From NCBI RefSeq assembly GCF_003334335.1, contig NZ_QOWQ01000003.1: 64,000 bases of DNA; one strand, 5' to 3'. This document shows positions 7,603 to 8,490 of the stretch, in pieces. Numbering within the stretch: the stretch's first letter is position 1; each line of letters starts with the position of its first letter. The notes under the pieces are model-generated. The model was given only the letters and a program-made list of their open reading frames with translations. It did no database searches and was not told the origin of the DNA. Source of the DNA: Escherichia coli. GTDB taxonomy: Bacteria > Pseudomonadota > Gammaproteobacteria > Enterobacterales > Enterobacteriaceae. The position numbers and the translations under genes are program-made.

Positions 7603-8490
7603 GTGGTACGGCGTTTAACTTCTCCGCGGCTCGAATTTGAAGCTGCGGCAATTTATGAATATCCCGAACATTTACGTTCATTCCTTAATGACTTACCCAC
7701 CCGACCAGGGGTGTATCTGTTTCATGGTGAAAGTGACACCATGCCGCTCTATATCGGCAAAAGCGTTAACATCCGCAGCCGCGTCCTTTCTCATTTACGT
7801 ACCCCGGATGAAGCCGCCATGCTACGGCAATCCCGACGGATCAGCTGGATATGTACCGCCGGTGAAATCGGCGCTCTGCTCCTTGAAGCGCGATTAATCA
7901 AAGAACAACAGCCGCTGTTTAATAAACGGTTGCGCCGCAATCGCCAGCTCTGTGCCCTGCAATTAAATGAAAAGCGCGTCGATGTGGTGTATGCCAAAGA
8001 GGTGGATTTTTCACGAGCCCCCAACCTGTTTGGCCTGTTTGCCAATAGGCGCGCAGCTTTGCAAGCATTGCAGACCATCGCTGATGAACAAAAACTTTGT
8101 TATGGCCTGCTGGGACTGGAACCGTTAAGTCGCGGTCGTGCATGTTTTCGTTCAGCGCTAAAACGTTGCGCCGGAGCATGCTGCGGTAAAGAGAGCCATG
8201 AGGAACATGCGCTACGCTTGCGCCAGTCTCTGGAGCGTTTGCGGGTGGTGTGTTGGCCTTGGCAAGGGGCGGTGGCGCTGAAAGAACAGCACCCGGAAAT
8301 GACTCAATATCATATTATTCAAAACTGGCTGTGGCTGGGGGCGGTTAATTCGCTGGAAGAAGCGACAACGTTAATTCGGACACCCGCCGGGTTTGATCAC
8401 GACGGTTATAAAATTCTTTGTAAGCCGCTGCTTTCCGGTAACTATGAAATTACTGAACTTGATCCGGCGAATGACCAGCGAGCCAGTTGA
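7603..8490 (+). CDS. cho: excinuclease Cho (UvrC homologue, GIY-YIG nuclease)
   Basis: 295-aa ORF with GTG start; N-terminal GIY-YIG module (GVYLFHG...PLYIGKS); recognised as Cho. Confidence 0.88.

Follow-up and report, generated by a model that had tools for sequence, protein, structure and literature searches.

The convergent genes cho and ves of Escherichia coli overlap by 41 bp at their 3′ coding ends, and we consider this overlap probably incidental, the product of gene packing and one small insertion. The pair lies in the window analyzed here, a 64,000-nucleotide stretch of contig NZ_QOWQ01000003.1 (assembly GCF_003334335.1). Specifically, cho (7603–8490, + strand; GTG start, TGA stop at 8488–8490) encodes the 295-residue excinuclease Cho, and ves (8450–9025, − strand; ATG at 9025, TAA stop at 8452–8450) encodes the 191-residue HutD-family protein Ves. 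A sequence-only reading of the stretch had placed the ends at 8490 for cho and 8450 for ves, which the list of open reading frames, the raw sequence, and RefSeq all confirm. Both encode conserved proteins and are genuine genes. Cho reaches 579.7 bits against the NCBIfam equivalog ‘excinuclease Cho’ (NF007833, cutoff 367), with residues 1–287 covered, and Ves scores 427.4 bits against the equivalog ‘Ves’ (NF008488, cutoff 292), with 191 of 191 positions matched, in addition to a Pfam HutD match over residues 8–175 (E = 1.8e-44). RefSeq/PGAP annotates identical cho and ves coding sequences (CDSs) with the 41-bp overlap in three E. coli records, one at just 96.8% identity to the window, and a 1.9-kb query spanning the overlap was found in 5424 of 5426 complete E. 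coli genomes, several at 100% identity. The pair has all the defining features of convergent overlapping genes. The overlap itself is already known, being carried by E. coli annotation, and the overlap of the two transcripts has been catalogued; the reconstruction of its origin given here is a new, yet unsurprising, detail.

The overlap (8450–8490, both strands) is tail-to-tail, with each stop codon inside the partner CDS. The two frames stand in phase 123:132, sharing bases at codon position 1 (window positions congruent to 1 mod 3) and setting position 2 opposite position 3. The variable Cho tail A-N-D-Q-R-A-S and its stop (8467–8490, + strand) lie antisense to the conserved Ves motif I-N-W-L-A-G-H. 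Likewise, a comparison of tails at 47 loci defines a derived six-codon Ves extension, S-P-D-Q-V-Q plus stop (8450–8470, − strand), that lies antisense to the conserved C-terminal Cho motif Y-E-I-T/I-E-L-D-P (E-I-T-E-L-D-P in the window). In the same 47-locus alignment, the Cho tail reads A-N-D-Q-R-A-S in K-12 and ENGLQAS, ENAPASS, GNAPAAR, and others elsewhere, and the C-terminal Ves motif is conserved as I-N/T-W-L-x-G-H. Each protein’s poorly conserved tail thus overlies the conserved end of its partner. The family profiles concur, with the Cho profile stopping at residue 287 and the HutD domain at Ves residue 175. The conserved cores nearly abut, as Cho …Y-E-I-T/I-E-L ends at ~8460–8466 and Ves …E-I-N-W-L-x-G-H at 8471. 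A weak AlphaFold2 model of Cho (mean predicted local distance difference test score, pLDDT, of 67.5) has a strand at residues 282–285 and pLDDT below 50 for the last five residues; the Ves model (mean pLDDT 52) is too poor for use on the Ves tail. A PDB sequence search returned only distant HutD structures (to Ves residues 14–149) and UvrC N-terminal domains, which do not inform the tails.

The position of each stop follows from the partner gene. In 5000 synonymous recodings of each gene, we followed the partner frame to its first stop. For cho, at least 75% of the recodings place this stop at codon 9 after L286 and none places it earlier, because Ves I-N/T gives TGA or TAA in the cho frame. 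After H185, the ves frame has its median stop at codon 6, with P(≥6) = 0.85, because Cho I-T or I-I (ATT-AYT) gives TAA in the ves frame; in the window, the ves TAA is the complement of TTA within the cho codons ATT-ACT. The stops are set by conserved residues of the partner, and both gene ends are therefore a mechanical consequence of it.

Scanning genomes with Ves gave 67 loci, of which 47 have cho convergent to ves. Both frames were extended to their stops at these loci, one of which (L024) was corrected by hand; Salmonella and Klebsiella are absent from this sample, as the peptide-pattern scan did not retrieve them. The spacing between the genes varies widely. The 41-bp overlap occurs at 17 loci, in Escherichia, including the cryptic clades, and in Citrobacter, and it is confined to these two genera, as is the six-codon Ves extension. 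Shorter overlaps prevail in most other Enterobacteriaceae sampled: 32 bp at four loci (Leclercia, E. asburiae), 24 bp at two (Siccibacter), 23 bp at nine (Enterobacter, Lelliottia, Huaxiibacter, Pseudenterobacter), 15 bp at one, 7 bp at six (Phytobacter, Kosakonia), and 4 bp at two. The remaining loci have gaps of 2 nt (one locus, Atlantibacter), 28–48 nt (four loci, Pseudescherichia and relatives), and 1.8 kb (one locus, Cedecea).

Alignment of the junctions with MAFFT, together with the raw junction sequences, reveals a single 9-nt in-frame indel, GATCCGGCG, at 8461–8469 (both strands), present only in Escherichia and Citrobacter and missing from Enterobacter-type sequences. Ves in most lineages has 185 residues and ends …W-L-P-G-H. 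The stop of this short ves is complementary to CT[T/C]-AA, the very triplet split by the 9-bp insertion; with the insertion, ves reads through the nine inserted nucleotides and nine more, to the TTA within the Cho I-T/I codons. In the alignment, this one event accounts for three additional residues in Cho, six in Ves (185 to 191), and an overlap of 41 instead of 23 bp. Since the short Ves form is widespread, the indel most plausibly represents an insertion rather than a deletion. This insertion would date from the ancestor shared by Escherichia and Citrobacter, where it broke up the earlier ves stop and lengthened both proteins along with the overlap. Each frame runs past its conserved core into the partner’s antisense strand as far as the first stop.

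The cho–ves overlap is an ordinary case for E. coli rather than a statistical oddity. Convergent CDS overlaps number 58 in E. coli by a published count, and phase 123:132 is the commonest among convergent overlaps of at least 5 nt (PMC2174442). As in the pairs described in general surveys (Rogozin 2002; Lillo & Krakauer 2007, PMC2174442; Pallejà 2008, PMC2478687), two conserved genes on opposite strands share their 3′ ends, and overlap arises by loss of a stop and 3′ extension. Convergent overlaps account for ~7% of overlaps in prokaryotes, and real long overlaps are confined to this orientation (PMC2478687). We see no essential difference from this class, except that the founding 9-bp insertion and the pinning of both stops can be reconstructed for cho–ves. 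The locus illustrates cleanly how overlaps of this type originate and why they end where they do; it also makes clear that no regulatory purpose need be read into them.

Long convergent overlaps often prove to be 3′-extension misannotations (PMC2478687), and some E. coli assemblies carry frameshifted (217-residue) or nonsense (180-residue) forms of ves. One of the two stops could, on these grounds, be something other than a real protein end, arising from a sequencing frameshift or a pseudogene tail. We regard this as extremely improbable and effectively refuted. At 41 bp, the overlap falls under the 60-bp range where misannotation dominates (PMC2478687); the same stops recur in Citrobacter, in the cryptic clades of Escherichia, and in E. 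coli strains that are divergent; Ves proteins of the dominant cluster (3318 members) have 191 residues, in line with the full-length match to the NCBIfam profile; and the conserved motifs of Cho and Ves both reach into the overlap. Neither annotated stop is wrong, as both frames are conserved to the last structural motif in or at the overlap.

The variant Ves proteins (P0002, P0007, P0009, P0049, P0071) form a separate observation. The 180-residue form, a cluster of 116 member sequences, ends …SEIN, with W181 changed to a stop. Several 217-residue forms enter one alternative frame (window 8371–8547, − strand) by frameshifts at different points and end at 8371. Natural strains therefore sometimes carry an inactivated or truncated ves.

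The cho gene is precisely absent, with the 191-residue ves intact, from E. albertii (L007, 1811–1886) and seven Citrobacter loci (L011, L014, L015, L018–L020, and L063; junction at 3576–3660). At these cho-less loci, nadE is directly convergent with ves, and the 60–85-bp spacer folds into a hairpin. In E. coli HCP4S3_I4 (L070, 1–2800), cho is interrupted by the com- and mom-bearing end of a Mu-like prophage, and ves is again intact. Judged from these genomes, cho appears to be dispensable and repeatedly lost in the Escherichia/Citrobacter clade. Four lineages, Pseudescherichia and relatives (L037, L038, L039, L042), keep both genes with 28–48 nt between the stops, almost wholly occupied by one hairpin with a perfect 13–14-bp GC-rich stem and no U tracts; in L038, the stem takes in the cho stop. 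This hairpin could be a bidirectional terminator, a 3′ stabilizer, or a repetitive extragenic palindromic (REP)-like element, and the hairpin-filled gap would insulate cho from ves. Nucleotide divergence in the overlap is not below that of the single-coding flanks, either within Escherichia (0.128 versus 0.109–0.112) or between E. coli and Citrobacter (0.251 versus 0.246–0.283). At the level of sequence comparison, labile spacing, loss of cho with ves kept, insulation by hairpins, and unexceptional conservation together argue against selection for the overlap.

Several smaller observations concern the same loci. In the cho-less loci, at most a few bases separate the endpoint of the deletion from the ves stop. 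The 3′ cho fragment left by the prophage in L070 is annotated as a partial ‘endonuclease’. Citrobacter amalonaticus AUH_CA_2023_1 (L022, 3539–4426) carries a cho homologue with six in-frame stops, whose best tblastn segment has 56% identity; it is either a pseudogene or the product of a low-quality long-read assembly. An apparent nadE–ves overlap in Trabulsiella odontotermitis (L060, ~3490) was rejected as an assembly artefact, as it coincides with an ‘NN’ scaffold gap.

The sequence-only reading had also held that no terminator can sit between the genes. This stands insofar as there is no intergenic space; it goes too far in that a transcript may end inside the partner CDS, for instance at a hairpin within ves or along C-rich extensions suited to Rho. 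A scan of 7300–9400 for terminator-like sites gave three matches, equal to the expectation from shuffled sequence (mean 2.8), and none between 7930 and 9193. With neither intergenic space nor a terminator-like site, the junction does not fit a bidirectional intrinsic terminator, which would be a GC-rich stem-loop between the convergent stops with A and U tracts on either side. The hairpin, at 8510–8536 on the + strand, begins 20 nt past the cho stop, within ves codons 164–172, and has an 11-bp stem, a 5-nt loop, and no U tract. With a folding energy of −21.2 kcal/mol, it ranks among the seven strongest 38-nt hairpin sites on the + strand of the window. We regard it as a candidate 3′-end or stabilizer element of cho.

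This hairpin may have been selected as an RNA element that defines the 3′ end of cho mRNA, stabilizing that end or positioning polymerase collisions, in which case the transcript overlap would be fixed at ~90 nt. Its strength and its place just past the cho stop suit such a role. It is present in all cho-bearing Escherichia clades (−17.5 to −21.2 kcal/mol), ranging from −17.5 to −20.6 in the four lineages other than that of the window; the three differences among Escherichia fall in the loop, at the base of the stem, or form a G-U pair, and the hairpin is weaker in the cho-less E. albertii (−12.9). Stem-loops are moreover reported in a preprint to be required for positioning the collisions of convergent polymerases (10.1101/2022.10.23.513370). 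Against this, the + strand lacks a U tract at the site, divergence within the hairpin (0.083) is not clearly under the gene-wide value (0.11), no published 3′ end maps there, and, despite the common 41-bp overlap, the hairpin is lacking in all Citrobacter loci examined except L013 (−14.8). An equally strong hairpin in ves at 8937–8974 is specific to K-12-like sequences, indicating that such structures can arise by chance. On balance, we find selection of the 8510–8536 hairpin unlikely, and plausible as a refinement of an incidental overlap. The 8937–8974 hairpin itself (ves codons 18–30, −24.0 kcal/mol on the + strand) was dismissed, as it is not conserved in other Escherichia clades, and is probably a chance palindrome over the motif A-G-E-T-R-E-I-C-x-F-P-P-A.

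Bidirectional terminators and programmed RNA polymerase collision between convergent genes were reportedly described by Ju et al. in 2019. Like such systems, the subject also of a preprint by Wang, Watters, Ju & Liu (10.1101/2022.10.23.513370), cho–ves has convergent transcription units that have to end against one another and a stem-loop, at 8510–8536, near their boundary. In the gapped relatives, the 13–14-bp hairpin lies exactly between the two stops. E. coli differs in having no hairpin between the stops and no flanking A/U tracts, its nearest hairpin being inside the ves CDS.

The composition of the flanking sequence points to another way of ending these transcripts. The GC skew of the + strand is −0.26 to −0.30 at 8540–8660 and +0.1 to +0.29 at 8180–8380, where RNA from the − strand is C-rich. 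RNA made past either stop is therefore C-rich and G-poor on its own strand, a composition that would suit Rho-dependent termination. C-rich antisense RNA is typical in E. coli, where Rho suppresses antisense transcription. To place published transcript ends, we matched a published Term-seq table to the sequence, which gives the MG1655 (U00096.3) coordinate as the window coordinate plus 1,815,912. Term-seq (Adams et al. 2021, PMC7815308 supplement) lists a Rho-dependent 3′ end just 24 nt inside cho (window 7627) and a bicyclomycin-sensitive site ~270 nt into the gene (~7872). In these bicyclomycin data, Rho acts only early in cho (PMC7815308 supplement), and many cho transcripts seem to be terminated early in uninduced cells. 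The published Term-seq list has no 3′ end in or near the overlap (PMC7815308 supplement), and neither SMRT-Cappable-seq data nor a transcriptional-interference study gave usable 3′ ends for it, the latter having one uninformative cho line.

On the far side of ves lies the intrinsic terminator of spy (9140–9208, − strand), upstream of the ves promoter, with a Term-seq 3′ end at MG1655 1825060(−), or window 9148 (PMC7815308). By Term-seq, it is strong and lies 123 nt upstream of the ves ATG. The hairpin at 9194–9208 also scores as terminator-like on the + strand in our scan and could stop cho read-through running antisense to ves.

Upstream of cho, a LexA (SOS) box, CACTGGATAGATAACCAGCA, is read from the sequence at 7570–7589 (+ strand); it fits the consensus CTG-N10-CAG, and we take it to be the published ydjQ/cho box. 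The FliA (sigma-28) promoter motif of ves, AACGTAAATCACCCGAGTTGCCGATAAC, taken from Table 2 of PMC4183435, was located at 9078–9105 (− strand). This promoter combines a strong chromatin immunoprecipitation signal with low expression, with ves at 18 units in motile cells and at 0 when fliA is deleted, a difference that the authors did not flag as significant (PMC4183435). Both promoters are thus weak or conditional, cho being LexA-repressed and ves FliA-dependent. Separately, E. coli 675SK2 (L069, ~1940–2700) carries an IS1A element between ves and spy, at most ~65 bp upstream of the ves ATG and at or beside the FliA promoter.

The two mRNAs are antisense to each other at their ends, as the sequence-only reading had proposed: any two transcripts covering both full CDSs are complementary over at least 41 nt, and the pair is listed as an excludon (PMC12288877). 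Its further suggestion of mutual regulation goes beyond the evidence. On that view, the overlap might be kept so that cho, in the SOS/LexA regulon, and ves, a FliA/sigma-28 and low-temperature stress gene, repress each other, head-on collision of RNA polymerases or RNase III cleavage of the duplex, or both, leading to mutually exclusive expression. Membership of cho–ves in the E. coli convergent excludome (PMC12288877), a junction without an intrinsic terminator, and the assignment of the genes to different, conditionally active regulons are all in keeping with this proposal. It also has a precedent in mscL–arfA, for which RNase III-dependent antisense control is described (PMC10070815). The comparative evidence speaks against it: the spacing is evolutionarily labile, with several lineages insulating the genes by a hairpin-filled gap; cho was lost at least twice with ves unchanged; and the overlap has no excess nucleotide conservation. 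In addition, both promoters are weak, many cho transcripts end early by Rho, and we found no report of reciprocal cho/ves expression in the literature. We therefore hold mutual repression to be quite improbable; if true, reciprocal regulation in cis would provide a modest link between the DNA-damage and the flagellar or stress regulons.

Like other excludon pairs, cho–ves has a very short intergenic distance, here a negative one, and is itself on the list (PMC12288877). It differs in being filed there on transcript overlap alone, whereas the defining outcome is mutually exclusive expression with RNase III processing; classic cases, moreover, have long overlapping untranslated regions, whereas in cho–ves the CDSs overlap. 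The nearest experimentally studied analogue is mscL–arfA of E. coli, likewise a convergent, stress-related pair with complementary 3′ regions. There, the arfA antisense RNA is described as acting on the mscL transcript, with a role for RNase III (PMC10070815). The regulatory effect in that pair has experimental support, whereas the comparative data for cho–ves argue against a conserved requirement.

With an incidental overlap, cho and ves would be transcribed toward each other without a canonical intrinsic terminator. Past its own stop, each mRNA would continue as untranslated, C-rich antisense RNA, most likely ended by Rho, although the 8510–8536 hairpin may instead limit the cho mRNA, through stalling there or trimming back to it. 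Sense/antisense pairing and polymerase collision could occur, probably as minor by-products, given that LexA represses cho, that Rho terminates it early, and that ves, which depends on FliA, is weak.

Several points weigh against an incidental origin. The 41-bp state is stable throughout Escherichia and Citrobacter. Even genomes without cho keep the Ves tail S-P-x-x-V-Q, with synonymous changes, which suggests some degree of purifying selection on the tail itself. The 8510–8536 hairpin is unusually strong for the window and coincides with the Escherichia-specific Ves residues Q-P-Q, a coincidence that could reflect selection for an RNA element. ExcludonFinder (2025, PMC12288877) counts cho–ves as one of 165 convergent excludons that occur in at least 50% of 58 MG1655 transcriptomes; the transcript overlap is thus real, and a regulatory effect is possible. 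Finally, we only infer how transcription of cho and ves terminates.

At the far end of these possibilities, cho–ves would function as an excludon, coupling the SOS response with the sigma-28/low-temperature program, and would contain a selected hairpin in ves codons 164–172. We judge this combination very unlikely. If it were true, the hairpin would have been selected at the expense of a change of Ves residues to Q-P-Q, and would set both the 3′ end of cho and the site of collision; once fully induced by the SOS response, cho would shut off ves in cis, and ves transcription would do the same to cho.

The gene order in the window is osmE–nadE–cho–ves–spy–astE, a chromosome segment of the E. coli K-12 type. 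At a permissive threshold, Rfam detects no RNA family in or near the overlap. In the nadE–cho intergenic region, the small RNA family ES036 (CssrF) matches at 7453–7495 (+ strand; 42.9 bits, gathering score 37.6), and an adjoining naRNA4/REP-like match at 7413–7449 (− strand) falls below threshold; both lie upstream of the cho LexA box.

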